Assembly (NCBI GenBank): GCA_017412045.1
Contig: JAFQOX010000017.1
Location: 6,183 to 70,182, forward strand
Reading direction: 5' to 3'
Origin: Clostridia bacterium
Lineage (GTDB): Bacteria; Bacillota; Clostridia; Oscillospirales; CAG-272
DNA length: 64,000 nt
Shown here: in pieces, positions 975 through 17,321 of the stretch
Layout of the letters: each line of letters opens with the position of its first letter
Numbering within the stretch: position 1 is the stretch's first letter
Made by a program: the position numbers and the translations under genes
The notes under the pieces: generated by a model
Database searches by the model: none
Seen by the model: the letters and a program-made list of their open reading frames with translations, nothing else
Told to the model about the DNA's origin: nothing

Positions 975-2666
975 ATGAAAGTTGTAATCGTTGGAGGCGT
1001 GGCTGTCGGAGCTACGGCGGCGGCAAGAATTCGCAGATTGGATGAACAAGCGGAAATCGCAGTATTTGAACGAACGGGGTATATTTCCTATGCAAACTGC
1101 GGTTTGCCGTATTATATTGGCGATGTGATCACCGATCCGGAAGATCTGACACTTCAGACACCGGAAAGCTTTTTTACCAGATTCCGGGTTCATATAAAGA
1201 CTTTTCATGAAGTGATTGCAATCAATACGGAGCGCAAAACGGTCTCCGTGAAGAATTTGGAAAACGGAACGGTATTTGAAGAAAGTTACGATAAACTGAT
1301 TCTGTCTCCGGGCGCAAAGCCTGCACAGCCTCGTTTGCCGGGAGTGGAAATGGATAAGCTGTTCACACTTCGCACCGTAGAGGACACGCTGCGCATCAAG
1401 AACTATATTCAGAAGTATAAGCCCAAATCAGCGGTATTGGCGGGCGGTGGCTTTATCGGATTGGAGCTCGCGGAAAATTTGCGGGAATCGGGTATGGACG
1501 TTACCATCGTTCAGCGTCCGAAACAATTGATGAAGCCTTTCGATGCAGATATGGCGGCGCTGATTCATAACGAGATGAGAAAACACGGTGTCAAGCTTGC
1601 GCTCGGTTACACGGTGGAAGGCTTTGAGGAAAGCGGAGATGGCGTAGACGTACTGCTGAAGGATCATGCGCCGCTTCATGCCGATATGGTGGTGCTGGCG
1701 ATCGGCGTGGTCCCCGATACCGCTCTCGCCAAGGAAGCAGGGCTGAAGCTGGGACTCAAGGGCAGCATCGTCGTCAACGACCGTATGGAAACTTCCGAGC
1801 CCGATATATATGCGGGAGGAGATGCAGTTCAGGTAAAGCATTACGTTACGGGTGAGGATACGCTGATTTCTTTGGCAGGTCCCGCCAATAAGCAAGGACG
1901 AATCATCGCGGATAATATCTGCGGTGGGGATAGCCGATATTCAGGCAGTCAGGGAAGCTGTGTAATTAAGGTTTTTGATATGACCGCGGCTGCTACGGGA
2001 ATCAACGAAACCAATGCCAAAGATCTTGGATTGGATGTGGATACCGTAATCCTCTCTCCCATGAGCCATGCAGGTTATTATCCGGGCGGTAAGGTCATGA
2101 CGGTAAAAATTGTTTTTGAAAAAGAAACGTACCGATTGCTCGGCGCGCAGATCGTGGGTTATGATGGCGTGGACAAGCGGATCGACGTATTGGCTACAGC
2201 CATCCATGCGGGTATGAAGGCAACGGAGTTGAAGGATCTGGATCTTGCGTATGCGCCTCCGTATTCCTCTGCCAAGGATCCTGTGAATATGGCAGGGTTT
2301 ATGATCGACAATATTGCCAACGGCACGCTGAAGCAGTGGCATTTGGCAGATGCGAATCAACTCCCGGCAGACGGCAGCGTAACGCTTCTGGATACCAGAA
2401 CGGTTGGTGAATATAGCCGTGGACATATTGAGGGCTTCAGAAATATACCCGTGGATGAACTGCGCGAACGGCTTGATGAAATTGAAAAGGGTAAGCCCGT
2501 TTATGTGATTTGTCAGAGCGGTCTGCGCAGTTACATTGCCTGCCGTATTCTGGAGGGAAACGGTTTTGAAGCATATAATTTTTCCGGAGGCTTTCGTTTT
2601 TACGATGCCGTGATCAACGACCGCGCTCTGATCGAAAGAGCATATTCCTGCGGAATGGACAAATAA
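975..2666 (+). CDS. CoA-disulfide reductase / NADH oxidase-family flavoprotein with C-terminal rhodanese domain
   Basis: MKVVIVGGVAVGATAAARI (FAD Rossmann fold), redox Cys motif SYANCGLPYY, second GGGFIGLE nucleotide-binding site, C-terminal rhodanese loop VICQSGLRS. AAGAAGGGA RBS precedes ATG 975. The track ORF starts at 927 but 975 is preferred. Confidence 0.85.
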   Translation: MKVVIVGGVAVGATAAARIRRLDEQAEIAVFERTGYISYANCGLPYYIGDVITDPEDLTLQTPESFFTRFRVHIKTFHEVIAINTERKTVSVKNLENGTVFEESYDKLILSPGAKPAQPRLPGVEMDKLFTLRTVEDTLRIKNYIQKYKPKSAVLAGGGFIGLELAENLRESGMDVTIVQRPKQLMKPFDADMAALIHNEMRKHGVKLALGYTVEGFEESGDGVDVLLKDHAPLHADMVVLAIGVVPDTALAKEAGLKLGLKGSIVVNDRMETSEPDIYAGGDAVQVKHYVTGEDTLISLAGPANKQGRIIADNICGGDSRYSGSQGSCVIKVFDMTAAATGINETNAKDLGLDVDTVILSPMSHAGYYPGGKVMTVKIVFEKETYRLLGAQIVGYDGVDKRIDVLATAIHAGMKATELKDLDLAYAPPYSSAKDPVNMAGFMIDNIANGTLKQWHLADANQLPADGSVTLLDTRTVGEYSRGHIEGFRNIPVDELRERLDEIEKGKPVYVICQSGLRSYIACRILEGNGFEAYNFSGGFRFYDAVINDRALIERAYSCGMDK

Positions 2667-2952
2667 TATTACGATCATTTTTATAGGAAAAAGGCACAAT
2701 CGGCTATACCGGGTGTCTTTTTCCTATTCTTTTTTCCTTGATTTTTCATGAGATCATGAAAAAATGAGAATGGGAAAAAATTCTTTTCATCTTCTGAATC
2801 GGTAAATTTTTTATGTATGCGCAATCAAAAACGAAAGCTTTATTAAAAAACTGAAAATAAATCAAAAACCCTGTATCATTTTTCCTCTCATTTGAGAGTA
2901 ACAGTATAGACAGGATGCTTGCCTAACAAAATTTGACGGTACATTTCCTTCG

Positions 2953-2977
2953 TGATATCATCCATTGGATGATATCA
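2953..2977. promoter_or_regulatory. Perfect 12+12 bp palindrome TGATATCATCCA-T-TGGATGATATCA about 34 nt upstream of the sigma factor start codon
   Basis: Read directly from the sequence. A TTGACG -35-like hexamer sits ~17 nt upstream (about 2931). Confidence 0.5.
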
Positions 2978-3010
2978 TTTCGTGAATGAATGTGATAAAG
3001 GAGTGTGTAA

Positions 3011-3575
3011 GATGTCGCCATTGTGTTTGGTGTTGATTGATGACGAATATGACAGGATCAATTTTAAGAAAATATACGAGCGGTATGCGGATGATGTGTT
3101 TAAGCGGATATATAAATTGGTAAACAACCGTCAGGATGCAGAGGATATTATGCAGGAGACATGGCTTGCCGTTGCCGAAAATATACAATTTTACCGTTCC
3201 AAGGACGACGCATCTATGCGGGCGTATATATTGAGGATCGCAAAAAACAGAGCGATTACCTTTTATCATACGAGCGAGAAGGAAAAAAGCCGTCGGTGTG
3301 ACACCGAGCTGATGGATTTGGCTGAAAGCAGTGATGACGAAACGCTTCTTTTTGATATGTGTAACAAAATGGACGTCGCCGTGATTTGTGAATGTATCCG
3401 TTCTCTTGATGAAATTTACAGCGACGTTTTGAATTATTATTATTTACACGATCATACCGTAAAAGAAATTGCAAAATTATTCAAATTGAAGGAAGTGACC
3501 GTGAGGGCGAGATTGGCACGCGGCCGCAAAAAATTGTTACAATTGCTCGAAGGGAGGAATCTGAATGAACGATAA
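3011..3575 (+). CDS. Sigma-70 family RNA polymerase sigma factor, ECF-like (regions 2 and 4 only)
   Basis: Region 2: RQDAEDIMQETWLAVAENIQFY...YILRIAKNRAITFYH. Region 4 HTH: YYLHDHTVKEIAKLFKLKEVTVRARLARGRKKL. AAAGGAG RBS lies 7 nt before ATG 3011. The track ORF starts at GTG 2982. Confidence 0.85.
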
Positions 3576-4065
3576 AGAATTATCGGGAAAAAGCCGCTTG
3601 AAGGAAGCTCTGCAATTCAGCGATCAAGCGTACGTTGACAAGCATCCGCCGATGGAGACCGATGTCCGATATTCAAAAAAGCATTTGAAATATATGGCGC
3701 GCCTGACGAGGCAAACGGTATCTCCTATTGGAATTTACGCAAGAAAATACGTTGCGGCGCTGATGGCGGCAGTATTTCTTCTCGTTTGCGGTTCCGTCAC
3801 GATATCCGCAGTCAGAGCGCCTTTAACCGAATTTTTGGAAACGGTTTCTTCCTCCATTTTTAAGGATCCGAATCCCTCTCAATCCGATGATCCGCATACA
3901 GAGCACGATTTTTCCGTTTTGGCAACGGATGATCCCAACAAGCATTATTACCGCTGTGCAGATGAGCGTTGCAAAGAAAGATCGAAAGAGGAATTTCATA
4001 CTTACGTTCCCAATGAAGAAAAACGGCGGTTGGAGTGTTCGGTTTGCGGCAGAGTCGCCAATTGA
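3565..4065 (+). CDS. Putative anti-sigma factor: single-pass membrane protein with a Cys/His-rich C-terminal ectodomain
   Basis: Overlaps the sigma gene by 11 nt (translational coupling). Has one TM (YVAALMAAVFLLVCGSVTISAV). The C-terminus reads KHYYRCADERCKERSKEEFHTYVPNEEKRRLECSVCGRV. The call rests on position and topology only. Confidence 0.55.
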   Translation: MNDKELSGKSRLKEALQFSDQAYVDKHPPMETDVRYSKKHLKYMARLTRQTVSPIGIYARKYVAALMAAVFLLVCGSVTISAVRAPLTEFLETVSSSIFKDPNPSQSDDPHTEHDFSVLATDDPNKHYYRCADERCKERSKEEFHTYVPNEEKRRLECSVCGRVAN

Positions 4066-4087
4066 CGTTGAAAAAGGAGAAGATTTT

Positions 4088-5635
4088 ATGATGAAAAAAA
4101 TCATCGCCGGCATTCTTACAATCATGATGATGCTGTCTTTTACTGCGTGCAACACGGATCCTATTTCCGAAGATCCCATGACGTATGATACCCAAGACAA
4201 AACGAGCCGTACGGAAGCCTCCGCTTCCACAGACAGAAGCCCGTCAACAACCAATCCGTCCGCGCAACCGATTTGGGAAAAGCCTGTCGCGCCGAGCGGG
4301 TGGGAATATCCCGAAATTGATCTTTCCGAGGGCAAATATACGCCGTCGGCGCTCGATCCCGCTGCGCTTGCAAGGAAGCTCGGCTATAAGGACGGAACTT
4401 ATGAATACGAATATTTCCGCGCGCTTTCGGGTCTCTCCTTTTACGCGCGGATCGCAAGCAACAAGGTTTCTTCCGCAACGAAAAATACTGCGGTCAGTTC
4501 TCTTGCAAAGGGATTTTTTGAAGTGATCAGCCGTGATACCTTCCTTGCTCCTTATGAAGATATTCTTTATCATACGTTTTCTCTTTTAAAGAAGTCGGAC
4601 TTTACGCTTTTTGCCGATAACGAAGCGCTGATTGCAGAGTATCAAAATACGCTTTCCTATCAATGGGATAAGCCCACGGAAATTTGGTATACGGCGGCAC
4701 TTTCGTTCACGGATATGGATACGAAGCTGACGGAATACGCGCTTGCGCTGCTAACGCTAAAAGAAAAATATCCCGATTACGCGGGTGAATTCACACTTTC
4801 CGAGGAAGCGATCTCCCAAGCGCAGGCAATCGTTGATTCCTGTAAGGCCGTTGCCGACAGCCGAGATGAGCAATGGGCAGCATGGGAGGAATATTTCAAG
4901 GAATCGACTCCAAAGGTGACGGTAACGTCGGAGATCATTCCCGAAAAAGATGCTGTGAAGCTTATTTTTACGAGCGACCACCCGCTTTCCGTTCAGATCG
5001 ACCCGAAATATATCGCGGATTTCAAGGGCGAGGTGACGCAAAACGGAAACGCTGTCGGTTATCACTATGAACCGATGGAATCTCCCGTCGTTTGCTACGT
5101 TCCGATCGGTCTTTTTTATTCCACGCACGGGGAATTTTCGGTGACGAAATATGTAACCAATGATTTGACGCACACTTATAAAGAAACGGTCACGGCTTCT
5201 GCCGATTTCCATTCGTGCTTTTCCGATGAAGCGATTACGGTTTCCGATCCGTTTTTGGATGCCGTTTTAAAGGCAGAATTCGGCGGCTCCTACAACGAGA
5301 GAGCGCTTTCACGAATCAGAAGCATTTCGGTTTCCTATCGACGAACAGATCGGGAAAACGTGGGCGGAGCGGCATTCAAAAAAGAGCCCTCCGTTCTGAT
5401 CACATATTACGACAAAACGCTCGGCGACGGCGGATCCTCCTATCATACGTATTCCGATTATTATACGGTGGGTTGGACGGGGGACTTTCCCCCGTGCGTC
5501 TGGGAGGATATGGAATATTTTCCGCTTCTGGAAAGCGTTTCGTTCCACCAAGACGGCTCATCCAAAATTCCGCTTCCCGAGGAATATCTCGACCGTATTC
5601 TCATAAAGGAATATACGGCTGACGATTTTTCATGA
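4088..5635 (+). CDS. Lipoprotein of unknown function (~515 aa)
   Basis: MMKKIIAGILTIMMMLSFTAC is a signal peptide plus lipobox (LSFTAC), followed by a Ser/Thr/Pro/Asp-rich linker. GGAGAAG RBS precedes ATG 4088. The track ORF 3887.. overlaps the anti-sigma gene, so the later start is preferred. Confidence 0.7.
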   Translation: MMKKIIAGILTIMMMLSFTACNTDPISEDPMTYDTQDKTSRTEASASTDRSPSTTNPSAQPIWEKPVAPSGWEYPEIDLSEGKYTPSALDPAALARKLGYKDGTYEYEYFRALSGLSFYARIASNKVSSATKNTAVSSLAKGFFEVISRDTFLAPYEDILYHTFSLLKKSDFTLFADNEALIAEYQNTLSYQWDKPTEIWYTAALSFTDMDTKLTEYALALLTLKEKYPDYAGEFTLSEEAISQAQAIVDSCKAVADSRDEQWAAWEEYFKESTPKVTVTSEIIPEKDAVKLIFTSDHPLSVQIDPKYIADFKGEVTQNGNAVGYHYEPMESPVVCYVPIGLFYSTHGEFSVTKYVTNDLTHTYKETVTASADFHSCFSDEAITVSDPFLDAVLKAEFGGSYNERALSRIRSISVSYRRTDRENVGGAAFKKEPSVLITYYDKTLGDGGSSYHTYSDYYTVGWTGDFPPCVWEDMEYFPLLESVSFHQDGSSKIPLPEEYLDRILIKEYTADDFS

Positions 5636-5653
5636 TCCCGCTGAGAGGTGCTT

Positions 5654-6151
5654 ATGAAAAAACTTCTTATCTTGTTTTGTCTTTTTTCCATACTTCTTTG
5701 TTCGTGCGGCAAGGCGGACGAGGTTCTCGACCTCTCCGCCTTTCATGAAAATTTCCGCACGGAGCACGGTGCGCTTTTTGATAACGCAAGCTGTGAACAC
5801 GATCTGCGGTATCGGAATATGCCCGATCCGCTTTCGGATGACGACGTGACCGTTTATCATGAGGTTTCATGCTATTACGGCAATTGCGATTTTGAAACGC
5901 ATTTGGAACCGCATACGGTCTCTTATTCAAACATTCAAGTTCAAAACGGAAATCCCAAATTGAAAGAAAACGGCTGTCTGTATCACCGTTTGGTCGTTCA
6001 ATGCGAATATTGCCGCGTTTATCCGTATTTTTATATCTACGTTTTATGCCCGAACCAAGATACTGCTTGTAAGGGCGGAAAAGAGTGCCTTGCCGGTGCG
6101 GATTGGGAGGAGATCTTATGCGATACGCCTTACGTAATATCGTACGATTAA
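5654..6151 (+). CDS. Cys/His-rich small lipoprotein, copy 1
   Basis: MKKLLILFCLFSILLCSCG is a signal peptide plus lipobox. The mature part has >=12 Cys. It is a paralog of 9459..9977, with shared blocks CEH.L.Y, YH..SC..G.CD.E.H.EPH, KENG.LYH, C.EC, DW.EI...TPY.I. Confidence 0.7.
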   Translation: MKKLLILFCLFSILLCSCGKADEVLDLSAFHENFRTEHGALFDNASCEHDLRYRNMPDPLSDDDVTVYHEVSCYYGNCDFETHLEPHTVSYSNIQVQNGNPKLKENGCLYHRLVVQCEYCRVYPYFYIYVLCPNQDTACKGGKECLAGADWEEILCDTPYVISYD

Positions 6152-7593
6152 AAACGCGGAGCTTTCTGAGCTTTGCCATCGCGTTTGCCATTCTTTTTCT
6201 TTCCATGCTCGGCGTTTTGACCGTTCGGCTCTGCGAGGATAACCGAGAACGCTTTTTCGGTCCGCTCGACGGCGCCTATCACGTAACGGACAGTGCCTAT
6301 ACGCCCTTCCTTTCCTATGAGGCGGCGGAATATCTGGAGAAATATTCCGAAGCGATCACGAAGACCTCCGCCGTGATGGAGCGGACGGTTTCTTTTCCCG
6401 ATATGGAGTATATCGGGAAAAACGATTATGCGAGAGAAACCTTCGGCTGGGAAAGGGCTTACCTTCCCATTGGAACGGCACAAACGGCGTATCACGAGGG
6501 CTTTCTTCTTTGCGCGGTGACCTCTATGGATATTTTGAAGGAGGTCTACGGCGGTGATCTCGTCATGACGGAAGGCACGGCGATCAGTGAAAAAAACAAC
6601 GCCGACGGTGCAAACAAGATCGTGATTTCCTTCTCGGTCGCAGAGAAAAACGGATTGAAGCTTGGAGACCGCGTGCATCTCGATCCGTTTTCCGTTTTCA
6701 GTGAAGAAGAAGGCGCAGTTTCCGCTTACCTTGGATTCTCCGAAGAGTATTCGGCGTATGAATACATCGTCGGCGGTATTTATGAAAACCGTGAGAATAA
6801 CGGAGTTTCCGCTTCGCTTCCGAGTGAGATCAATGAAAATAAGGTTTATATCCCCATCTCGACTCTGACGGAAATGGCGAGAGATCCCTATCTTCTTGAT
6901 TTTGGCATTCGTAACGAAACGGGGCTTTCCGAGGAACCGCCGTCCGTGATTCCCGACAGACTCTATTTTCAGGTAAACAATACGGGAAGCGTAAAAATTT
7001 TAGAGAAAAAAATAAATGAGATCGGTTTTTCGGAGGCGCTTCTGCTTTCGCCCTATATATCCGATGCGGCTTCTTCACCATCCGCAAGACTTTCCGAGAT
7101 CGTTTCCTTGCTTCTTGTCGGTGTGATCGGAATGGGCTTTGCCGTTTTTGCGCTTACGGTGTTTTTTAATATGAAAGCAAGGAACAGAGAGCTTGCCGTG
7201 CTGACGGCACTCGGACAAAAGCGAAGCTGTGTCGTTCTCTCGTTTTTTGCTGAAATCTGTATTCTGACCTTTTTAGCCTTCCTGTGCGGTATTTTTCTTT
7301 TGATGGGAGCGGTCGTGCTTTTGGCTGTTCCGATCTCAAATTACTTGTATGAAGCTGAATTTTCGGCAAAGATTACGCATGAAAGCGCGGATCTCTTTTT
7401 GATCGGAAGCGGAGCGCAATCTGCCGCAACTGAAAAATTGGAGGATTTCGATTTTCTTTTTACTCGATATATCATACCGAGCACCGCGCTTTCCGCATTG
7501 GCGGCGGTCTTGATCCTGCTTCTTATTTTCGGTATCGTAGCTTTTTATGTCCGTAAGATCAACGCATTGTCGGGAGTGGGAGGAAAAGAATGA
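6118..7593 (+). CDS. ABC transporter permease, MacB/FtsX type, 4 TM with large extracytoplasmic domain, copy 1
   Basis: MRYALRNIVRLKTRSFLSFAIAFAILFL (typical FtsX-family N-terminus plus TM1), ~300 aa ectodomain, then TM2-loop-TM3-loop-TM4 (IVSLLLVGVIGMGFAVFALTVFFNMKARNRELAVLTALG...ALAAVLILLLIFGIVAFYV). Overlaps both the upstream and downstream genes. Confidence 0.85.
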   Translation: MRYALRNIVRLKTRSFLSFAIAFAILFLSMLGVLTVRLCEDNRERFFGPLDGAYHVTDSAYTPFLSYEAAEYLEKYSEAITKTSAVMERTVSFPDMEYIGKNDYARETFGWERAYLPIGTAQTAYHEGFLLCAVTSMDILKEVYGGDLVMTEGTAISEKNNADGANKIVISFSVAEKNGLKLGDRVHLDPFSVFSEEEGAVSAYLGFSEEYSAYEYIVGGIYENRENNGVSASLPSEINENKVYIPISTLTEMARDPYLLDFGIRNETGLSEEPPSVIPDRLYFQVNNTGSVKILEKKINEIGFSEALLLSPYISDAASSPSARLSEIVSLLLVGVIGMGFAVFALTVFFNMKARNRELAVLTALGQKRSCVVLSFFAEICILTFLAFLCGIFLLMGAVVLLAVPISNYLYEAEFSAKITHESADLFLIGSGAQSAATEKLEDFDFLFTRYIIPSTALSALAAVLILLLIFGIVAFYVRKINALSGVGGKE

Positions 7594-9350
7594 CGGTTTT
7601 AAAATTTGCTTTTCGGAATTTGATTCGCCTGCCTTGGCGAACTCTTTTATATTTTGCCATCGTATTTTTCATCGTCCTATCCGTCTCGGCTTCTCTTTTC
7701 GTATACGTTGCGTGTGAAAACGCGGGAGAGGCGCTGGATGAAAATTATGTGTTCGTTGCTTCGCTCGTTCCGAGGAAAAAGGATTCCCTCGCCCTTCGGG
7801 ATATCGGATACTGCGCAGACGGAACGGAAATTCTTTCTTTTCACGTGTCCATGTCGGAAAATAACGGCGTGATTCTCGGCGGCGCGTATATGCAAAGGCT
7901 TCCCGAAAAAACGGAGATCGCAAACGCGCCTTCGGCATGGGTGGACGAAATCGGCGCAAGGCTCGTTGCCGTGGAAAATCTGCATCTCGTCCCCTCCTTC
8001 TTTTCGGGAGAATGTACGTTGCAAAGCGGCACGGGTATTACCGAAAAAGGCTATGCGGGCGAACGTGCCGAGCTTGTGATCCCGTGGCGGCTTGCAGAGA
8101 AATACGGTGTTTCCGTCGGTGATACGCTCATCAGACGGTATTACCGCGACGACTACGAAACGTATATTTATTTGGAAAGCGAGATCGTCGGTATTTATAA
8201 AACGAGCGCGATTTCGCCCGATGAAAACGATGATCCCGTATATATTCCTCTTGCCGTTGCGGAATTGGATTATGCCACGCTCATTTCGGAGCGGCAAACG
8301 CCAACCTCCGAGCTGATCATCGAACGCGCGGATTTCGTTTTGAAGGATAGAAACGCATTTGAACCGCTCGTTTTGCAGGCTGGGGCAAACGGACTGGATT
8401 TCCGTAGAGCCGATCTCGTATTCAATAACGGCGCTTACGATACGCTTTCGGGCGAGCTTCGGAGCATTACGTCGATTGCTATGCTCGTTCTGTTCGGTGT
8501 TTTGGCTGTCGGTGTAAGCGTTCTCGTCTTTTTTACGCTCTATCTCTGCCATGCAAGAGACCGCGAAAAAACGTTGCTTTCTGCACTCGGGATGAGCCGC
8601 GGAGGCATCCGCGCCATGCTCACCCTTGAATTGCTCACAGTTGCTGTTTGTGCTTTTCTGATCGGAGGTGTGGCAGGTTATTTTACGGCAGATGCCGTTT
8701 GCGGCTACGTGAACGATTCGGTATTGACCGATGAAGAAATTTCAAGCAAAATCGAAGGCACGGGGCGCGGAAGTCAAACGGATATCACGGCACCCCTTGA
8801 GCAAAACATCAAAATAGAGATTTCCGTGCGCTCCGTTCACGTTTGTGCATCCGGACTCACGGTCAACGAAACGAAAATGCCGAGAGAGGACGAAATCGGT
8901 GTCAGCAGGCATTTGTATTATCGCATCGGCAACGATCTGACGGATATGATGCAGGGAAAGGCTCGCGTGCCGACCTCGGTCGTGGGCATTACGGATATGA
9001 GCGCCGTCAAAACGACCGTTTGGGACGAGTCCTTTTCCGGTATCCGTGTTTTTGTCAGCGAGGATTTTAATATGGGAGCAATGGAGAGTAACCGTATTTT
9101 TCTGACACCTTACGATCAAAACGGGTACGTATCGCTCAAAAAGGATTCTTCTTCGCTCGGCGATGCAAGCTTGCCGAAAAATACGTCTGTGCGAATCGTG
9201 GGAGTCTATGAAGAAAACGAATATTGCTCGGGAAACGATCTGCTCGTCTGCATGGAGGATTATCACAGGCTTTATTCCGAATTTTCCATCACGGACGAAA
9301 GCTTTTTCTTTGAGCGCATCGGCACGGTTTATACAAAAAATGAGCCGTAA
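7590..9350 (+). CDS. FtsX-family permease-like protein, atypical: TM1, ectodomain, TM2, TM3, then ~215 aa hydrophilic C-terminal domain and no TM4, copy 1
   Basis: MTVLKFAFRNLIRLPWRTLLYFAIVFFIVLSV..., FtsX core ITSIAMLVLFGVLAVGVSVLVFFTLYLCHARDREKTLLSALGMSRGGIRAMLTLELLTVAVCAFLIGGVAGYF. No further hydrophobic span is present up to the C-terminus (...VGVYEENEYCSGNDLLVCMEDYHRLYSEF...). ATGA overlap with the upstream gene. Confidence 0.75.
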   Translation: MTVLKFAFRNLIRLPWRTLLYFAIVFFIVLSVSASLFVYVACENAGEALDENYVFVASLVPRKKDSLALRDIGYCADGTEILSFHVSMSENNGVILGGAYMQRLPEKTEIANAPSAWVDEIGARLVAVENLHLVPSFFSGECTLQSGTGITEKGYAGERAELVIPWRLAEKYGVSVGDTLIRRYYRDDYETYIYLESEIVGIYKTSAISPDENDDPVYIPLAVAELDYATLISERQTPTSELIIERADFVLKDRNAFEPLVLQAGANGLDFRRADLVFNNGAYDTLSGELRSITSIAMLVLFGVLAVGVSVLVFFTLYLCHARDREKTLLSALGMSRGGIRAMLTLELLTVAVCAFLIGGVAGYFTADAVCGYVNDSVLTDEEISSKIEGTGRGSQTDITAPLEQNIKIEISVRSVHVCASGLTVNETKMPREDEIGVSRHLYYRIGNDLTDMMQGKARVPTSVVGITDMSAVKTTVWDESFSGIRVFVSEDFNMGAMESNRIFLTPYDQNGYVSLKKDSSSLGDASLPKNTSVRIVGVYEENEYCSGNDLLVCMEDYHRLYSEFSITDESFFFERIGTVYTKNEP

Positions 9351-9382
9351 GACGAAAGCTTCGACAAAGTTTCAAAAATCTC

Positions 9383-9411
9383 TTGACAAGAGCGCCCTCG
9401 GCACTTATAAT
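9383..9411 (+). promoter_or_regulatory. Consensus sigma-A type promoter (TTGACA-17 nt-TATAAT) between the two cassette copies
   Basis: tctTTGACAagagcgccctcggcactTATAATataac, read directly from the only sizeable intergenic gap of the locus (9351-9458). Confidence 0.6.
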
Positions 9412-9458
9412 ATAACTGTACTATTGATGATAATACAGTTGGGCGAAAAGGAGATTTT

Positions 9459-9977
9459 ATGAAAAGATATATTCTGCTTTGCTTGCTTGCGTTTTGCGTT
9501 TTGCTGTTTTCCTCTTGTCACGCGGTTTCCGAAACGCATTTGGATCCATCCCATTACGGTGAGGATTTCAGAATCAAAAACGAAATGCTTTTTCCGAACA
9601 CGGAATGTGAGCATTCCTTGGTTTATACGCCGACGGACGGTACGGAGGCGGATATGTATCACAAGACCTCCTGCAAATGGGGCGGATGTGATTACGAGGC
9701 GCACGGAGAACCGCACGTATTTCTGTTTAAGCAGGGGTATTTGCCGAGCGCGAGAGCGCATTATAAGGAAAACGGATATCTGTATCATTCCTTCCGGATG
9801 GCTTGCGAGGAATGTCACGGAGCGGTCACGCTCCACGTTCTTTGCCGTACGCAGAATGCCGAATGCGGCGCGGGCGAAGGGGCGATCCACGCGCCTGCCG
9901 TATGCTTTGCAGGCTGTGATTGGCAAGAAATCTTTCGGGGAACGCCGTATCGGATCACGGTGCGCTCCGATGCGTGA
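9459..9977 (+). CDS. Cys/His-rich small lipoprotein, copy 2
   Basis: MKRYILLCLLAFCVLLFSSC is a signal peptide plus lipobox. Paralog of 5654..6151. AAGGAG RBS is present. Confidence 0.7.
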   Translation: MKRYILLCLLAFCVLLFSSCHAVSETHLDPSHYGEDFRIKNEMLFPNTECEHSLVYTPTDGTEADMYHKTSCKWGGCDYEAHGEPHVFLFKQGYLPSARAHYKENGYLYHSFRMACEECHGAVTLHVLCRTQNAECGAGEGAIHAPAVCFAGCDWQEIFRGTPYRITVRSDA

Positions 9978-9994
9978 CGGAAGGCGGTGGCGCT

Positions 9995-11467
9995 TTGTAT
10001 TACGCGATTCGAAATATAGGCAGACAGAAGGCAAAAAGCCTTCTTGTTCTTCTGATGGCGTTTGCCGTCCTGTTTCTTTCTCAATTCGGATTTTTTATGC
10101 GCTGTATATCCGAACACGTGAGAGAACGCTTTTGGGGACCGCTTGACGGCTCCGTTCACGTGACGGATGACGATCTTGAGGCGTATCTTACCTACGATGC
10201 CGCCGTTACGCTTGCGAACGATGCGGAGGTGATCACCCGTCTCTCTGCCGTGAAAACCTATACGGGCTTTTTCCGTAACGCCGTTTACGTGGGCTACGGT
10301 AGCTATCAGCGTCCGCAATATGCGGGAGAAACACCGACCGCGGACAGAAAAAGCAATTATCTTACGGGTGTTTGCGTGAAAGCCGTGACCTCCATGGAGA
10401 TTCTTGAGGAGACGTACGGCGGTGTTCTGGCGGTGGTGCAAGGCTCGGCGATCACCGACGAAGACACGGATCTGCGGAAAAACAAGATCGTTGTCTCGGA
10501 AAAATTCGCTGAAGCCAACAACCTGCGGATTGGAGATTCTCTCGTATTGGATACCTTGTCCCTTTATCAGACAGAGGCGGAAGCGGTACGCTTCGGTATG
10601 ACGGATCTGTATGACAAAAATAAATTTACGTATGCATATACCGTGGGCGGTATCTACCGTTTGCATACGGACAATGCGGCGGCAGCTTCTGTTCCGTGGG
10701 AATTGTATGACAATATCGTTTACGTGCCAATGACGACGGCGGAGAATATCTCCGTTTCCGAAGGCGTACGGACGATGTTTGAGAGCGAGGATGTTTTCGC
10801 CTTGAGGACCAATCCCGTTTTGGTTCCCGATGCGCTGTATTTTCATCTTTCGGATATCGGCTGTGCGCAAGCGCTTGCCGAAGAAATGAACGGAATCGGT
10901 TTTTCCGAGCGAATCAGGCTGACGCCGTACGTTTCCGATCTTTCGTCCTCTCCTTCTGCGCGGCTTTCGGAGGTCGTATCGGGGACGCTTGTCGGTGTGA
11001 TCGCGGCGGGTTTTGCCGTATTGCTGTTGACCGCGCTTTTGAATATGAGGGCAAGACGGCGCGAATTTGCCGCCCTGATCGCCATGGGTAAAAAAAGAGA
11101 GTCCGTTGCTTTGTCCTACGCTCTTGAGCTTGGGCTTCTGATCGTCTCGGCGTTTCTTTTGTCCGCCGTAGCGATGACGGTCATCGCCTATCTGTGCGCG
11201 GCACCACTCTCCCGGTATTTGTACGCCGCAGAGGAAGCGGCTTTGTTTCACACCGAAAGCGCGGATCACTATCTTTTTGGCGATTGGAGCGATCCGCTTG
11301 CCGTGCAGGTGCAAGCGTCCATTCCCGCGCTTTTCCGTGAATATATGATGCCGAACATCGTATTTACGGGAGCGGTGACGGCAGTTTTGATGCTGTTGCT
11401 TTGCGGTATGATTTCAGTCTATGTAAAAAACGTACACCCAATGTACGATGCGGGGGGGAAGGAGTAA
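9995..11467 (+). CDS. ABC transporter permease, MacB/FtsX type, 4 TM, copy 2
   Basis: Paralog of 6118..7593 (WGPLDGSVHVTDDD / FGPLDGAYHVTDSA; SPSARLSEVVS / SPSARLSEIVS; NMRARRREFAALIAMG). A TTG start at ~9995 (LYYAIRNIGRQKAK) preceded by GGAAGG aligns with the copy 1 N-terminus. The track ORF begins at 9920 inside the upstream gene. Confidence 0.8.
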   Translation: MYYAIRNIGRQKAKSLLVLLMAFAVLFLSQFGFFMRCISEHVRERFWGPLDGSVHVTDDDLEAYLTYDAAVTLANDAEVITRLSAVKTYTGFFRNAVYVGYGSYQRPQYAGETPTADRKSNYLTGVCVKAVTSMEILEETYGGVLAVVQGSAITDEDTDLRKNKIVVSEKFAEANNLRIGDSLVLDTLSLYQTEAEAVRFGMTDLYDKNKFTYAYTVGGIYRLHTDNAAAASVPWELYDNIVYVPMTTAENISVSEGVRTMFESEDVFALRTNPVLVPDALYFHLSDIGCAQALAEEMNGIGFSERIRLTPYVSDLSSSPSARLSEVVSGTLVGVIAAGFAVLLLTALLNMRARRREFAALIAMGKKRESVALSYALELGLLIVSAFLLSAVAMTVIAYLCAAPLSRYLYAAEEAALFHTESADHYLFGDWSDPLAVQVQASIPALFREYMMPNIVFTGAVTAVLMLLLCGMISVYVKNVHPMYDAGGKE

Positions 11468-11468
11468 T

Positions 11469-13256
11469 ATGACGGTCATCAGAATGGCTTTTCGGAATCT
11501 CGTCCGTTTTCCGAAAAGAACGGTTTTATACGGACTTACGGTTTTTCTTCTCGTCTTTTCCATCACCGTCTCTCTTTTCGTATACCGTGCGTGCGGTCTG
11601 GCGGAAAGCACGCTGGAGGAGCATTATGTTTTCGTCGCTTCTCTGGTCAAAAGAACACAAGGACGCAATATTCCGCTTTCTGAGATCTTCAAATGCACGC
11701 CTTATAAAAAATTGTTGGCATTCAACGTCACCGTTTCGGAGGGAGAGGGCGTATTTCCCGCAGGCTCTGCGCTGACGGAGCTTCCTTCTGCCGATAGGGA
11801 CGAAAATCCGACGGACGTTTGGCTTGAAGGACCGGGCTGTCCCATATACGGCGTAGAAAATCTGGGGCTCGTTTATCCGTTTTTCTCGGGAGAATGTCAT
11901 ATCACGCAGGGAACGGCGCTGACGGAAAAGGGATACTGCGGCGAAGCCGACGAGACGGTGATCCCCTGGTGGATGGCGGAGCGCTACGGACTCAAGGTCG
12001 GCGATACCGTGAACCGCCGTTATCTCCGACAGACGGGAGAATTTGCCTATATTTATATCCCGACGGAGATCGTGGGTATTTATGCGACGTCCTCTCCCTC
12101 GCCGAATATTGAAAATTATCCTGCGTATATTCCGCTTGCCCTGGCGGAGACGGACTACGGCAAAATCTTGCCGAGCGCAACGGATGCCGGGGATATCCGC
12201 GTGGAAAGAGCCGATTTCGTGCTGAAAAACAGGGAGGATTTTGCGGATTTCGTCGCGTTCGCGCAAGCGCAGGGCTTGGATTTCACGTCTGCCAATCTTG
12301 TTTTCAATAACAGCACCTATGACGTGCTGTGCGCCGAGCTTCAAAATATCGGTCATATTGCGCTCCTCGTATTTGCCGCCGCTACTCTCGCAGGTGTCGG
12401 CACGCTGATTTTTCTGACGGTCTATCTTTGCAGAGCGAGAGAAAAAGAAACGGCGATTCTTCGCGCTCTGGGAATGAAAAAAACGAAGATCTACGCTTTG
12501 CGTGCGTTGGAATTTGCTTTGCTCATCGCCGTTTTTTCTTCGGTAGGATTTTTGGGAGGTCGTTTTGCGGCAGGGGCGGTTTGCGATTTCGTCAACGGTA
12601 CGGTTCTGGCGCGTGCCTCCGCATCCGAGGAAATACAAGATCTGAATGCATCGGAAAGTTTTGTCATTACCATGCCGCTCGAAAAAGATTTCAACATGAA
12701 AATATCCCTTTCTCCGTCTCAAATTGCCGATGCCGCCGTTGCGGTGCATTCGTTGCCGAAGCTTTCCGTAAACGAGCTTGGGATCTCGCGCCATCCATTT
12801 TACTTGTTTATGACGGACTCGGAGAATCTGACCGCTACGCCCGAAGCGATGAAGGCGTTTGAAACGAGGGAAAAGCTCCGGATGGATATCGTCGGCGTAA
12901 CGGATCTTTCCGTTTTTGAACTGACGGAAACGAAGGAATTTCCCGAAAATTTCGTCAGGATCTACGTGAATGAAACTTCTCCGTATGCCAATGAAGAGAG
13001 CCTGTTTTTGTCGGCGGACGATTTCGGAGATTACGTTTCGGTTCTTCTGTATGAAGCGGGGATCTCGCCGGACGGAGGCAGATTGGGACAAGTGAAAAGA
13101 TATTATATTGCCGGTACTTATCAGGAAAATGAATATTGCTCGGGCGATGACATCCTTGTTTCCATGGAGGACTATCATAAAATATATTCCGATATATCCG
13201 TCACGGATCACATCAATCATTTTCAGCGCATCGGCGCAGTTTGGGAAAAGGAGTGA
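11469..13256 (+). CDS. FtsX-family permease-like protein, atypical (3 TM plus C-terminal ectodomain), copy 2
   Basis: MTVIRMAFRNLVRFPKRTVLYGLTVFLLVF... Paralog of 7590..9350 with the same architecture and the conserved C-terminal block GTYQENEYCSGDDILVSMEDYHKIYS. The start follows the upstream stop by 1 nt. Confidence 0.75.
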   Translation: MTVIRMAFRNLVRFPKRTVLYGLTVFLLVFSITVSLFVYRACGLAESTLEEHYVFVASLVKRTQGRNIPLSEIFKCTPYKKLLAFNVTVSEGEGVFPAGSALTELPSADRDENPTDVWLEGPGCPIYGVENLGLVYPFFSGECHITQGTALTEKGYCGEADETVIPWWMAERYGLKVGDTVNRRYLRQTGEFAYIYIPTEIVGIYATSSPSPNIENYPAYIPLALAETDYGKILPSATDAGDIRVERADFVLKNREDFADFVAFAQAQGLDFTSANLVFNNSTYDVLCAELQNIGHIALLVFAAATLAGVGTLIFLTVYLCRAREKETAILRALGMKKTKIYALRALEFALLIAVFSSVGFLGGRFAAGAVCDFVNGTVLARASASEEIQDLNASESFVITMPLEKDFNMKISLSPSQIADAAVAVHSLPKLSVNELGISRHPFYLFMTDSENLTATPEAMKAFETREKLRMDIVGVTDLSVFELTETKEFPENFVRIYVNETSPYANEESLFLSADDFGDYVSVLLYEAGISPDGGRLGQVKRYYIAGTYQENEYCSGDDILVSMEDYHKIYSDISVTDHINHFQRIGAVWEKE

Positions 13257-13260
13257 AGAT

Positions 13261-13944
13261 ATGGAAACTTTGCATTTGAAAAACGTATCCTACGATTATA
13301 CGACCAAAGCGGGAAAGGTCCACGCTTTGAGGGATGCGACCGCCGTCTTTGAAGCGGGCGCGGTTTACGCGATCGTCGGACGCTCGGGAAGCGGAAAGTC
13401 CACCTTGATGTCCCTCATGGCAGGGCTGGACATCCCCAAAGACGGTGATATTTTTTATCACGGCGAAAATTTGAGAAATATGGATCGCGATAAGTTCCGC
13501 CGCGAGCATATCGGCATGATCTTCCAGAGCTATTACTTGCTCCCCCAGCTGACCGCCGTGGAAAACGTGGAGCTTTCGCTCGAGCTTGCAAAATACAAGG
13601 GAAACAAGCGTGCCCGCGCCGAGGAAATGCTCTCGCTCGTCGGCATCAAAAGGGAGCAATTCAAAAAGCGCAGTACGCAGTTTTCGGGCGGCGAACAGCA
13701 AAGGATCGCCATCGCCCGCGCCATTGCGGCAGATCCCGAGATCATTCTCGCGGATGAACCGACGGGAAACTTGGATAACGATAACAGCATGAACATCGTC
13801 GGGATTCTCGTCGATCTGGCGCATAAATACGATAAATGCGTGATTGTCATTACCCACGCCGCCGAGATTGCGGAAAGAGCAGACGTCGCGCTGAAGATGG
13901 ACGACGGCGTGCTGAAATGTGATTTCGGGAAAGAAATGGTGTAA
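13261..13944 (+). CDS. ABC transporter ATP-binding protein, MacB/LolD-like (227 aa)
   Basis: Walker A GRSGSGKST, Q-loop, signature FSGGEQQRIAIARA, Walker B ILADEPTGNLD, H-loop VIVITHA. It is the only ATPase in the locus. Confidence 0.9.
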   Translation: METLHLKNVSYDYTTKAGKVHALRDATAVFEAGAVYAIVGRSGSGKSTLMSLMAGLDIPKDGDIFYHGENLRNMDRDKFRREHIGMIFQSYYLLPQLTAVENVELSLELAKYKGNKRARAEEMLSLVGIKREQFKKRSTQFSGGEQQRIAIARAIAADPEIILADEPTGNLDNDNSMNIVGILVDLAHKYDKCVIVITHAAEIAERADVALKMDDGVLKCDFGKEMV

Positions 13945-14023
13945 ATGATTGCAAGTCTATTGATTCTCTTTTATGTTTCCGATATAATAAAATTGTATTC
14001 GTAAGACCCACTGTAGGGCACAA

Positions 14024-14054
14024 GTCGGGAAGATTTTCCCGGCTTTTCTTTTTT
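14024..14054 (+). terminator. Rho-independent terminator closing the ABC locus
   Basis: GTCGGGA-agattt-TCCCGGC hairpin followed by TTTTCTTTTTT. Confidence 0.6.
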
Positions 14055-14108
14055 CCCCATTTCTTCCTCGTCAGAACGAAAGGAAAACGGAAGCGCTTTC
14101 AAGGTCGG

Positions 14109-14150
14109 AGAAAGAAAAAGACCTTGTCTGCCAAAATGGTAAACAAGGTC
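14109..14150 (-). terminator. Rho-independent terminator downstream of the guaA-like gene
   Basis: GACCTTGT...ACAAGGTC hairpin. A T-rich run follows on the minus strand. Confidence 0.5.
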
Positions 14151-14234
14151 TGAAACTATGCGGTTTTATTTTGAACGAAACGATAAACGTTTTTGTTCAA
14201 ATGAGAGTAAAATTGTTTTGCTGTAACAGGTTTA

Positions 14235-15242
14235 TTATTCCCACTCAATCGTGCCGGTAGGCTTGGGAGTGAGATCGTAGAGAACGCGGTTGATGCCTGC
14301 GACCTCGGTGACGATTCTGTTGGTGATTTTGTGAAGAACGGCGTAGGGAATTTCTTCGATGGTTGCGGTCATTGCGTCTTTGGTATTGACGGCGCGGATG
14401 ATGGCGGGCCAGCCTTCGTAGCGGCTTTCATCCTTTACGCCGACGCTCTTGATGTCGGGAATGGCGATGAAATACTGCCATACGGTTTTAGCAAGACCGG
14501 AATTGTCGAATTCTTCGCGGAGGATCGCGTCTGCTTCGCGGAGTGCGTGGAGTCTGTCGCGAGTGATGGCGCCGAGGCAACGAACACCGAGACCGGGGCC
14601 GGGGAAGGGTTGACGGTCAACCATGGAAGAGGGGAGTCCGAGGGTTCTGCCGACAACACGGACTTCGTCTTTGAAAAGGAACTTCAAGGGCTCAACGAGC
14701 TGGAATTTTTCAGCGAGGTCGTCGGGAAGACCGCCGACGTTATGATGGGATTTGACTGCTTTTTTGCCTTCGCCCTGCTTGACGCTTTCCAGAATGTCGG
14801 GATAGATGGTACCCTGCGCGAGGAAGGACACGCCGTCGAGCTTGCGCGCTTCGTCAGCGAATACGTTGATGAATTCTTCGCCGATGATTTTACGCTTGCG
14901 TTCGGGATCCGCAACGTTTGCGAGAAGGTTCAGAAAACGGTCTGTAGCATCGATATAGATGAGATTGGCATCGAGCTGATTGCGGAAAAGTTCGATCACC
15001 GCTTCGCTCTCGTTTTTGCGCATAAGTCCGTGGTTGACGTGTACGCAAATGAGCTGTTTGCCGATTGCCTTCAGAAGAAGTGCGGCAACTACGGAAGAGT
15101 CAACACCGCCAGAGAGTGCGAGCAGGACCTTTTTGTCGCCGACCTGGGCGCGGACCTCTGCGATCTTTTCTGCGATGAAAGCCTCTGCGAGTTCAGGGGT
15201 GGAAATACGAGTCATGGAATCCGGTCTGAGATTGGTATTCAT
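14235..15242 (-). CDS. guaA: GMP synthase ATP-pyrophosphatase (synthetase) domain protein, with no glutamine amidotransferase domain
   Basis: KKVLLALSGGVDSSVVAALL (PP-loop), HHNVGGLP, PFPGPGLGVRCLG and the canonical C-terminus KPTGTIEWE. It is 335 aa, starting where the synthetase domain of fused GuaA begins. Confidence 0.85.
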   Translation of the reverse strand: MNTNLRPDSMTRISTPELAEAFIAEKIAEVRAQVGDKKVLLALSGGVDSSVVAALLLKAIGKQLICVHVNHGLMRKNESEAVIELFRNQLDANLIYIDATDRFLNLLANVADPERKRKIIGEEFINVFADEARKLDGVSFLAQGTIYPDILESVKQGEGKKAVKSHHNVGGLPDDLAEKFQLVEPLKFLFKDEVRVVGRTLGLPSSMVDRQPFPGPGLGVRCLGAITRDRLHALREADAILREEFDNSGLAKTVWQYFIAIPDIKSVGVKDESRYEGWPAIIRAVNTKDAMTATIEEIPYAVLHKITNRIVTEVAGINRVLYDLTPKPTGTIEWE

Positions 15243-15581: not shown

Positions 15582-17321
15582 ATGACGAAACGAATTCCCA
15601 AAATATCGCTCCGTGCGATGTCGCTTGCCAAGCAATGCGGAATCAGCAGTAAAGATTTGTATTTAATTACGCCGACAGGCGCTGACGGCAGAATCACCGA
15701 AGAGGACGTTTTGCTCGCAGCCAAGGCGAAAATGGATATGGCTTCCGTGGCAGCGCAAAAGCCCGCAGCGGAAAAAGCACCCGTTGCGGAAGAAGTACCT
15801 GTAACGGAAAAAGCGCCCGTTGCAGAAAAAGCACCCGTTGCGGAAGAAGTACCTGTAACGGAAAAAGCGCCCGTTGCAGAAAAAGCACCCGTTGCGGAAG
15901 AAGCGCCCGTGGCGAAAGAAGCGCCCGTGGCAGAAAAAGCACCCGTAGCGGGAGAAGCGCCCGTTGCGGAAGAAGCACCCGTTGCAGAAAAAGCGCCCGT
16001 TGCGGAAGAAGCGCCCGTTGCGGAAGAAGCGCCCGTTGCAGAAAACGCACCCGTAACGGAAGAAGCGCCCGTAGCGGAAGAAGCGTCCGCAGCAGAAGAA
16101 GCGCCCGTAACGGAAGAAGCACCCGTTGCGGAAGAAGTACCCGTTGCAGAAGAAGCGCCCGTAACGGAAGAAGCACCCGTTGCGGAAGAAGTACCCGTTG
16201 CAGAAGAAGCGCCCGTTGCAGAAGAAGCGCCCGTTGCGGAAGAAGTGCCCGTAACGAAAGAAGCGCCCGTTGCGGAAGAAGCGCCCGTTACGGAAGAAGC
16301 ACCCGTAACGGAAGAAGCACCCGTTGCGGAAGAAGTACCCGTTGCAGAAGAAGCACCCGTTGCAGAAGAAGCGCCCGTAGCGGAAGAAGCACCCGTAGCG
16401 GAAGAAGCACCTGTGGCAGAAGAAACTCCCGTAGCGGAAGAAGCCCCCGTGACGGAAGAAGCACCTGTGACAGAAGAAACTCCCGTGGAAGCGCCGGACA
16501 GCGTTGCCATTGAAAAAATCGAGACGGAAAAACAGGAACAAACCGCAATCATTGCCAAACCCGTGATGAACGAAGAAACGATCGGCGATCAGAGCGCAGA
16601 AGGAGAGATCCCGAAGCATGAGACGGTTCATTCCTTTGATTCGGAGGCATACCTTCATACGGACGTCATCATTCCGAGAACGGAAACCGCGCCGGACGGA
16701 ACGCCGATGACGGTCAGTATGTCCTTCGATGCTTCTTCTATCGTGAGATTACATACGATGATCAAGGAGAACGGCGAAGCGATGGGAATTCCTCACGTTA
16801 CGATCAACGATATGATTCTCTTTGCGGCGGCAAAGCTTCTGAAGAAAAACAAAGCGCTGAACGCGCATTTTCTCGGAGACAAGATCCGTTATTTCGACGG
16901 CGTGCATCTCGGATTCGCCGTAGATACCGATCACGGTATGGAGCTTCCCGTGGTATTCGATGCGGATAAGCTTTCCCTCTACGCGCTCACGCAGGTTACG
17001 GATGCTTTGATCAGAGGCGCAAGAGCGGGCAAAATCGCTTCCGGCAAAACGAAGCCCTGCGCTTCCTTCACGGTATCCAATCTCGGCACGCTCGGCGTGG
17101 AATATTTCATGCCGACGCTGAAGGCACCGCAGACCGGAATCCTCGGCGTTTGCGCGTTGCAGAAGAGAGTGAAGGAGGTTGGCGGAAAGGACGTATTCTA
17201 CTCCTGCATCCCGCTCTCCCTGACCTTCGATCCCCGCGCGCTGGATACCACGAGCGCCGCGAAATTCCTGCGCGATCTTTGCGTATCGCTGGAAAATTTT
17301 GAATTGTTGCTGTTGAAATAA
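15582..17321 (+). CDS. 2-oxoacid dehydrogenase E2 (dihydrolipoamide acyltransferase)-like protein with no lipoyl domain, a long Pro/Ala/Glu repeat linker and a degenerate catalytic motif
   Basis: N-terminal E3/E1-binding-like segment ([29 protein letters not shown]), ~240 aa of [AV]PV[AT]E[EK] repeats, and a C-terminal catalytic-domain pattern ([39 protein letters not shown]). Confidence 0.75.
15760..16490 (+). repeat. About 40 tandem copies of an 18-bp coding repeat (GAAGAAGCNCCCGTTGCG-like, hexapeptide APVAEE) with 54-bp higher-order units
   Basis: Read directly. For example, the 54-mer gaagaagtacctgtaacggaaaaagcgcccgttgcagaaaaagcacccgttgcg occurs twice back to back near 15788-15895. Confidence 0.9.

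Follow-up and report, generated by a model that had tools for sequence, protein, structure and literature searches.

The permeases of ATP-binding cassette (ABC) transporters of type VII typically have four transmembrane (TM) helices, or ten in YbbP and BceB (PMC5985334, PMC12646458). In MacB-type permeases, TM1 and TM2 of both protomers form the central bundle, TM3 and TM4 are packed outside, and between TM2 and TM3 comes the major coupling helix (PMC5985334). Type VII systems typically work through an extracytoplasmic partner protein, and the docking of LolA to LolC and of TesA to YbbP are precedents (PMC12646458). Here we analyzed a 64,000-nucleotide stretch of DNA from a Clostridia bacterium (positions 6,183 to 70,182 of contig JAFQOX010000017.1, assembly GCA_017412045.1; hereafter the window), which encodes two FtsX-family proteins of a different build. 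B1 (7590-9350, + strand, 586 amino acids, ending in TAA) and B2 (11469-13256, + strand, 595 amino acids, or 602 from an alternative upstream ATG at 11448) have three TM segments, and a C-terminal tail that probably forms a second ectodomain stands in place of TM4. Each gene follows one for a canonical four-TM permease, A1 or A2. We found no description of a three-TM FtsX protein in the papers searched on this transporter class, and the four-TM and ten-TM forms given in reviews (PMC5985334, PMC12646458) agree with the original prediction, made from the letters of the window, that this arrangement is not among the characterized MacB, LolC/LolE and FtsX proteins.

Both open reading frames (ORFs) are as first described, and all four peptides quoted for them were found. 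A Kyte-Doolittle scan (19-residue window, cut-off of 1.5) gave three hydrophobic segments in each B protein, in B1 at residues ∼11-46, 288-323, and 338-371, and four in each of A1 and A2. The third span of B1 and B2 is followed by a hydrophilic tail of ∼215-225 residues. Past TM3, the hydropathy of B1 peaks at ∼1.4 in windows that overlap the end of TM3, the tail proper staying below 1.5 throughout, and that of B2 peaks at 1.04, also below the cut-off. The Pfam FtsX profile matched B1 with 39.1 bits (profile positions 2-73 of 120) and B2 with 30.4 bits (3-73 of 120); the match ends after TM3 in both, and nonetheless scores above the gathering cut-off of 25.5. Pfam MacB_PCD was not detected in B1 or B2 at E ≤ 0.01. 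An AlphaFold2 (AF2) model of B1 built from 44 sequences (mean predicted local distance difference test score [pLDDT] of 83, predicted template modelling score of 0.77) starts with an amphipathic helix at the N terminus, followed by TM1 (15-52), an ectodomain of mixed alpha/beta structure, TM2 (281-322), and a short helix in the cytoplasm (324-332). A helix of 55 residues (337-391) comes next; it holds TM3 and runs well past the hydrophobic stretch. A low-confidence linker (388-397) leads to a mostly beta domain with only one helix, of 11 residues, and the model contains no long helix after residue 391. The predicted structure of B1 thus has three long helices and none further in the tail, as anticipated, and the claim that a C-terminal ectodomain replaces TM4 is supported by hydropathy, by the short Pfam match, by the modelled secondary structure, and by conservation in all homologues.

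We searched B1 against 5.8 billion protein clusters. Homologues were found in 76 clusters (38-97% identity) from NCBI, JGI, ENA, and Logan assemblies, nearly all of them 575-612 amino acids long, and the full-length ones all show exactly three hydrophobic segments, followed by a hydrophilic tail 212-244 residues long. The hydropathy of the third segment is 1.9-3.0 across the family. More distant representatives share this build, with tails of 206-249 residues; among them, P0089, P0095, P0098, and the product of the B gene of locus L027 each have three spans and a tail of 206-230 residues. A profile of the tail alone, run exhaustively with HMMER against 1.84 billion representatives, recovered only 25 proteins; the full-length ones (560-612 amino acids) carry the tail at the extreme C terminus, the shorter ones are fragments from short contigs, and none of the 25 has a TM helix beyond the tail. 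The mean column identity within the tail is 41%, and S385, G538, Y540, D550, F574, and R576 are invariant. B1 and B2 align from end to end with 41% identity, and no hydrophobic ORF that could hide a TM4 was found downstream of either gene in any frame. This pattern of three TM segments plus tail is far beyond chance and is not a sequencing error; the architecture is kept in a small family from uncultured gut Clostridia. The lack of TM4 is conserved in the homologues, and a downstream FtsX half concealed by a frameshift, a BceB-like ancestry that the original prediction had left to be checked, is ruled out.

The core of B1 (residues 1-371; 7590-8702, + strand) comprises the amphipathic helix, TM1, an ectodomain (∼46-290), TM2, the coupling-helix loop, and TM3. 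Foldseek aligned it with LolE, LolC, Streptococcus pneumoniae Spr0694-0695, MacB, YbbP, YtrF, BceB, and HrtB in the PDB (∼380-415 columns, E values down to 1e-10), and isolated LolE and LolC periplasmic domains also matched the B1 model. Because of these alignments to known type VII structures, the modelled core of B is that of a genuine type VII ABC permease. The TM2-TM3 loop has the conserved sequence R/K-x-E-x-x-L-L-x-A-L-G-M, which aligns with the coupling regions of BceB and PsdB, and together with the AF2 helix at 324-332 it shows that the major coupling helix is retained. B has the TM1-Porter/Sabre domain-TM2 unit, the FtsX score, the major coupling helix, and the cognate ATPase expected of the FtsX fold, and it lacks the four-TM topology with its TM3-TM4 shoulder-loop hairpin and the C-terminal minor coupling helix. 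The charge distribution is uneven: the N terminus has 4-5 K+R and no D+E, and the TM2-TM3 loop 5-7 K+R, while the 30 residues past TM3 contain 1-2 K+R and 5-6 D+E. From this bias, from the homology of the TM1-ectodomain-TM2-loop-TM3 unit to MacB, LolC, and LolE, and from the extracytoplasmic location of the fold in all matched structures, we infer that the tail lies outside the cell, as had been proposed.

In the tail of B1 (8703-9350, + strand), the TM3 helix first continues to residue ∼391, a flexible linker (388-397) follows, and the predicted second ectodomain (∼400-586) completes the protein, without a TM4. The original prediction took the conserved block at its end for the close of a second MacB periplasmic-core-type domain (PCD). 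We modelled the tail alone with AF2 from 26 sequences and no templates (mean pLDDT of 72; folded blocks 76-93) and compared the model with 350,542 PDB chains using Foldseek. The best 15 matches, and 29 of the best 30, were periplasmic domains of LolC, LolE, MacB, HrtB, and YbbP, with 160-175 columns aligned, E values of 7e-4 to 5e-2 for the best 27, and probabilities of 0.97-1.0 for the best 15; the exception, at rank 16, was a ribosomal-protein chain with a probability of 0.11. Sequence comparisons gave no significant similarity. A Pfam scan of the 26 tails gave nothing relevant, with PF12704 (MacB_PCD) unmatched at E ≤ 1. In a search of PDB sequences with the tail profile, the top-scoring match, 7uek (E = 0.54), was unrelated, and the only match from a related family was to LolC residues 167-210 (E = 1-2.2), which lie in the equivalent Sabre segment; hmmsearch of the tail against LolC gave an E value of ∼1. 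When hhalign was used to compare the tail with the first ectodomain of B itself, the long alignments kept the same order at E values of 0.13-0.25, and an 8-column match had an E value of 0.03. The hhalign alignment, which is not significant, puts IVGxY, the next strand, ExDY, and FERxG at equivalent positions. Judged from the order of secondary-structure elements, the tail seems to end after the strand that matches the third Porter strand, without the last helix-strand unit and the following TM helix. The assignment of the tail as a second PCD is therefore supported at the level of the predicted fold, where 29 of the 30 best matches agree, but not by significant sequence similarity.

A1 (6118-7593, + strand, 491 amino acids) and A2 (9998-11467, + strand, 489 amino acids) are FtsX/MacB-type permeases and the presumed partners of B1 and B2. 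The Pfam FtsX profile covers positions 3-119 of 120 in A1 and 5-113 of 120 in A2; for MacB_PCD, A1 scored 25.2 bits, just below the cut-off of 27, and A2 scored 29.5. With four spans, a near-full FtsX match, and a gene immediately before that of B, A matches the canonical four-TM partner that had been proposed. A1 and B1 are 24% identical through TM3 and for ∼30 residues into the TM3-TM4 loop of A, beyond which A goes on to TM4 and B to its second ectodomain. The TM3-TM4 loop of A1 (window positions 7350-7460, residues ∼405-455) is unusually long at ∼50 residues, and its first half is homologous to the start of the B tail. The only ATPase gene of the locus (13261-13944, + strand, 227 amino acids; Pfam ABC_tran, E = 3.5e-34) begins within 5 nucleotides of the end of B2. 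Its best similarities among NCBIfam models were to LolD, FtsE, DevA, and the MacB nucleotide-binding domain (NBD), all below the equivalog cut-offs (187.8 bits against 307.75 for LolD), and it is classed here as a MacB/LolD/FtsE-type ATPase. The lipoprotein-A-B unit is duplicated in tandem (5648-13944), with the single ATPase gene after B2.

The gene neighbourhood of the family was analyzed with the help of a genome scan with the full-length B alignment, and the gene order is the same in 27 related loci from at least nine genomes of uncultured gut Clostridia/Eubacteriales. The genes for the large and the small lipoprotein come first, preceded in many loci by those for the sigma and anti-sigma factors, and are followed by A, B, and the ATPase gene. 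Where the sequence reaches, A stands directly before B in 27 of 27 loci, with the small lipoprotein just upstream of A, and the ATPase gene directly follows B in loci extending past B, except in the second, tandem cassette of L023. The tandem cassettes of L023 have the ATPase gene between them, and single cassettes such as that of L007 have it after B. Several genomes contain two to four cassettes, and tandem pairs occur in the window and in L023. The A family is similar in size to the B family (70 and 76 clusters) and is found on shared contigs; the adjacency of A and B refers to loci retrieved through B homologues and, on the side of the A clusters, to the one context checked, L027. Even there, where A is the most divergent of those found (32% identity), a three-TM B follows in the same gene order. 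A search through distant A homologues for an ancestral arrangement with a four-TM partner found none, the hits beyond L027 being unrelated single-permease systems.

Two kinds of lipoproteins accompany the permeases. The small ones, lip1 (5648-6151, + strand, 167 amino acids, with a lipobox signal peptide) and its paralogue lip2 (9459-9977, + strand, 172 amino acids), belong to a group of ∼165-190 amino acids also present in loci L001-L025, and a copy stands immediately upstream of A in every locus that includes this region. Eight cysteines and four histidines are invariant in 16 homologues, in the pattern C-x-H ... Y-H-x3-C-x4-C ... H ... Y-H-x5-C-x2-C ... C-x2-Q-x3-C ... C, which suggests metal binding. 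The large lipoprotein (4091-5635, + strand, 514 amino acids from MKKII..., lipobox FTAC) contains no known domain; it is 32% identical to its L001 equivalent (4530-6035, E = 4e-84) and has homologues of variable length (232-546 amino acids) in 19 related loci. Neither lipoprotein had a significant sequence match in the PDB, and Pfam and NCBIfam matched their signal peptides only.

The cassette starts with a gene for an extracytoplasmic function (ECF)-type sigma factor (2982-3575, + strand, 197 amino acids; Pfam Sigma70_r2, E = 1.6e-14, and Sigma70_r4_2, E = 3.5e-12), and a homologous sigma factor gene lies upstream of the cassette in 9 related loci. It is overlapped by the gene for a putative anti-sigma factor (3565-4065, + strand, 166 amino acids) with one hydrophobic span, predicted to be a TM segment, and a C-terminal ectodomain containing Cys and His. 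This protein had no Pfam match and would be an anti-sigma factor by its gene position; its homologues follow the sigma factor gene in L007 and L023. The anti-sigma ectodomain has the patterns H-x3-C-x4-C...E-x-H and C-x2-C, which resemble part of the small lipoprotein, and a 6-sequence alignment suggested that the first of these patterns is common to both. We do not claim a relationship between the two, as a hidden Markov model of the lipoprotein family gave an E value of only 0.2 for the anti-sigma factor of the window among 1,601 ORFs.

Altogether, ten co-oriented genes on the + strand (∼2980-13944) run from the ECF sigma factor to the ATPase, and a terminator-like hairpin lies beyond the ATPase gene at 14022-14045. 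The stop codon of A1 and the start codon of B1 overlap as ATGA. After the TAA of B1, an intergenic region of 108 nucleotides contains a promoter-like site, TTGACA-17-TATAAT (9383-9411, + strand), identified by its match to the sigma-70 consensus alone; it matches at 12 of 12 positions and ranks first among the sites in a scan of 2600-14400. Since this perfect consensus sits in the gap between B1 and lip2, the second lipoprotein-A-B-ATPase unit may have a strong promoter of its own, while the first unit comes after the ECF sigma and anti-sigma genes. Further downstream, positions 15768-16465 hold 38.8 tandem copies of an 18-nucleotide unit (82% matches) inside a + strand ORF of 579 amino acids (15582-17321). 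The units encode a run of the hexapeptide (A/V)PVAEE and give long spurious ORFs on the reverse strand; the C-terminal part of the ORF reads as a putative 2-oxoacid dehydrogenase acyltransferase.

Among the systems closest to the cassette is LolCDE, the lipoprotein-release transporter of Escherichia coli, in which two paralogous FtsX-type permeases are also encoded side by side with one MacB-type ATPase and lipoproteins are linked; LolE and LolC are the best structural matches of the core and the tail of B, and the ATPase is nearest to LolD. However, LolC and LolE are four-TM proteins with a single periplasmic domain each, whereas B has three TM helices and two predicted ectodomains. LolCDE is a system of diderm bacteria, whereas the hosts of the cassette are uncultured Clostridia with presumably a single membrane. 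No LolA- or LolB-like gene was recognized in the cassette, where Pfam domains matched A, B, the ATPase, and the sigma factor only. The cassette thus departs from LolCDE proper, which has two four-TM paralogues and passes triacylated lipoproteins to LolA through the Hook of LolC. MacB, which exports macrolides and toxins, shares with B the succession of TM1, Porter/Sabre ectodomain, TM2, major coupling helix, and TM3, as well as the mechanotransmission framework (PMC5985334), but B has nothing like the other features of MacB, namely its fused NBD, its four-TM topology with a short shoulder loop, its minor coupling helix, and its partners MacA and TolC.

In YbbP, BceB, and ADOP, too, a single polypeptide holds two or more FtsX-related modules or periplasmic domains, YbbP having two Porter/Sabre domains (PMC12646458). 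Unlike B, they consist of two complete FtsX units and need no second permease, with ten TM helices in YbbP and BceB. In B there is one shortened FtsX unit, the second ectodomain is not followed by a TM helix, and the four-TM partner is a protein of its own. ADOP-type duplicated permeases have eight TM helices. Two complete TM2-TM4 FtsX units with 8-10 TM helices, which define this group, are not found in B. FtsEX and YtrEF are likewise type VII systems of Firmicutes whose ectodomains control extracytoplasmic partners, and YtrF (9o9x_C) is among the structural matches of B, but their permeases have four TM helices; here the partners would be two lipoproteins, and no peptidoglycan-hydrolase partner was recognized. 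The system would function in the manner of LolCDE or MacB, and B has a type VII/FtsX-fold core, yet B is not a member of LolCDE, BceB, YbbP, or ADOP.

We consider it probable, with some reservation, that B1 and B2 serve MacB/LolCDE-like (type VII) ABC machines as non-canonical permease subunits, paired with A, with the second ectodomain outside the cell and lipoproteins docking to the complex. B keeps the amphipathic helix, TM1 and TM2 with the first Porter/Sabre-type ectodomain between them, the major coupling helix, and TM3. In place of TM4 and the C-terminal minor coupling helix, TM3 is predicted to continue outward as a stalk-like helix, followed by the linker and the second ectodomain. 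B most likely pairs with the A encoded upstream of it and with two copies of the ATPase, which would give an asymmetric complex of seven TM helices, three ectodomains, and two NBDs. By homology to MacB, LolCDE, FtsEX, and YbbAP, the closure driven by ATP binding and hydrolysis would reach the two canonical ectodomains by way of both major coupling helices and the TM1/TM2 stalks. Gene linkage suggests that the third ectodomain, held by one helix, most likely docks both of the co-conserved lipoproteins, and chiefly the small Cys/His-rich one. Expression of the cassette is probably induced by the ECF sigma/anti-sigma pair that it encodes, in an envelope-directed response, and candidate roles are an envelope-stress or antimicrobial response and the extraction of lipids or lipoproteins. 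The loss of TM4 on one protomer is structurally plausible, since TM3 and TM4 are peripheral in MacB-type permeases and deletion of the C-terminal minor coupling helix of Escherichia coli MacB has a modest effect only (PMC5985334). A broader proposal, which we put forward tentatively and hold to be somewhat less than an even chance, is that the cassette represents a new architectural class that combines a four-TM and a three-TM protomer in an asymmetric complex. In such a class TM4 and the minor coupling helix would be naturally dispensable on one side, and TM3 would serve as a third stalk with an additional Porter/Sabre-like domain. This domain would be a built-in adaptor for two dedicated lipoproteins, the small one being a putative metal-binding Cys8/His4 protein, and would dock them and drive them mechanically, with an ECF sigma factor in control.

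Several alternatives to a tail-out permease subunit were considered. B might be an artefact or a pseudogene, created by a frameshift or a sequencing error or left as the truncated half of a longer duplicated permease like BceB, YbbP, or ADOP. B1 does match the ADOP duplicated-permease family of NCBIfam weakly (E = 0.0013, 16.9 bits against a cut-off of 622), and BceB is the best PDB sequence match of B, in the coupling region. We nevertheless rejected frameshift, pseudogene, and sequencing error, and give them next to no probability, because the architecture is invariant in homologues from independent assemblies, which share length and three segments, because the tail is conserved with invariant residues, and because B1 and B2 align over their full length; no relative in the tail-profile search has any sequence beyond the tail, and neither gene is followed by a hydrophobic ORF. 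It is very unlikely, too, that the third segment does not cross the membrane or that the tail is cytoplasmic, with the C-terminal domain acting inside. The TM2-loop-TM3 unit is homologous to the FtsX domain, in which the coupling helix is inside, the third segment is strongly hydrophobic throughout the family, the charge bias fits a tail outside, and the matched structures carry this fold only outside the cytoplasm. The tail could also be a lineage-specific domain, unrelated in evolution to MacB periplasmic domains, whose likeness to LolC and LolE came from convergence or from an imperfect AlphaFold model, and B would still be a three-TM FtsX subunit with an ectodomain. The non-significant profile-profile and HMM comparisons, the blank Pfam result, and the modest Foldseek scores would be in line with this. 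We think it unlikely, as the model was template-free, nearly all of the best structural matches fall in one structural family, the same as for the rest of B, and the sub-threshold alignments are co-linear with the first ectodomain, the LolC match lying in the Sabre segment.

Finally, B could be dispensable as a half of the permease and act as a paralogue with an accessory or regulatory role and no part in transport, such as sensing or the inhibition of A-A homodimers, with A alone forming the functional permease with the ATPase. The missing TM4 and minor coupling helix would suit such a role, many FtsX-type permeases, such as MacB, FtsX, and HrtB, are homodimeric (PMC5985334), and distant single-gene relatives such as P0167 occur with an ATPase only. 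We regard this as a minor possibility, of about the same weight as an unrelated tail domain, since every locus retrieved through B, and L027 as well, has A and B side by side, B retains the coupling-loop motif and the TM1/TM2 core, the ATGA overlap suggests coupled and equimolar translation, and LolC/LolE are a precedent for paralogous heterodimers (PMC5985334). Other observations weigh against B as a permease subunit with an external second PCD. The window has one ATPase gene for two A/B pairs, and the family is limited to a few genomes of uncultured gut Clostridia, so that B may have a lineage-specific degenerate role. The first ∼45 residues of the tail-only model have low confidence, its TM-score to the isolated LolC and LolE domains is modest (∼0.40), and the sequence homology of the tail to PCDs was not significant with hhalign, the PDB profile search, or hmmsearch. 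The family is known from sequence and predicted models, from which A-B heterodimerization, tail topology, and lipoprotein docking are all deduced.

How the tail arose may be reconstructed in two ways. An even number of TM helices could have been deleted between two FtsX units that each bear a PCD, with the downstream helices lost afterwards; examples would be the deletion of TM4 and the next TM1, from tandem genes or an 8-TM duplicated form, or of TM4-TM7 from a YbbP-like form. Alternatively, a PCD could have been inserted into the TM3-TM4 shoulder loop, followed by loss of TM4. The B tail probably arose by one of these routes, deletion or insertion, and since either preserves the orientation, the tail would stay outside the cell. 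No intermediate on the way to the three-TM B was found among the tail-profile relatives or the distant A homologues.

Overall, the three-TM architecture of B should be moderately to highly surprising for specialists in ABC transporters, and its immediate impact is limited because the family is narrow, uncultured, and without an assigned function. The mechanotransmission model gives key roles in type VII ABC transporters to TM1, TM2, and the major coupling helix, and a conserved natural family in which one protomer has neither TM4 nor the minor coupling helix already provides a test of what the fold requires. With its third ectodomain on TM3, the family would also show a new way to add an extracytoplasmic module for binding partners. 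Together, the linked lipoproteins and the ECF sigma and anti-sigma genes mark an uncharacterized envelope system, of which human and ruminant gut Clostridia have several copies per genome.

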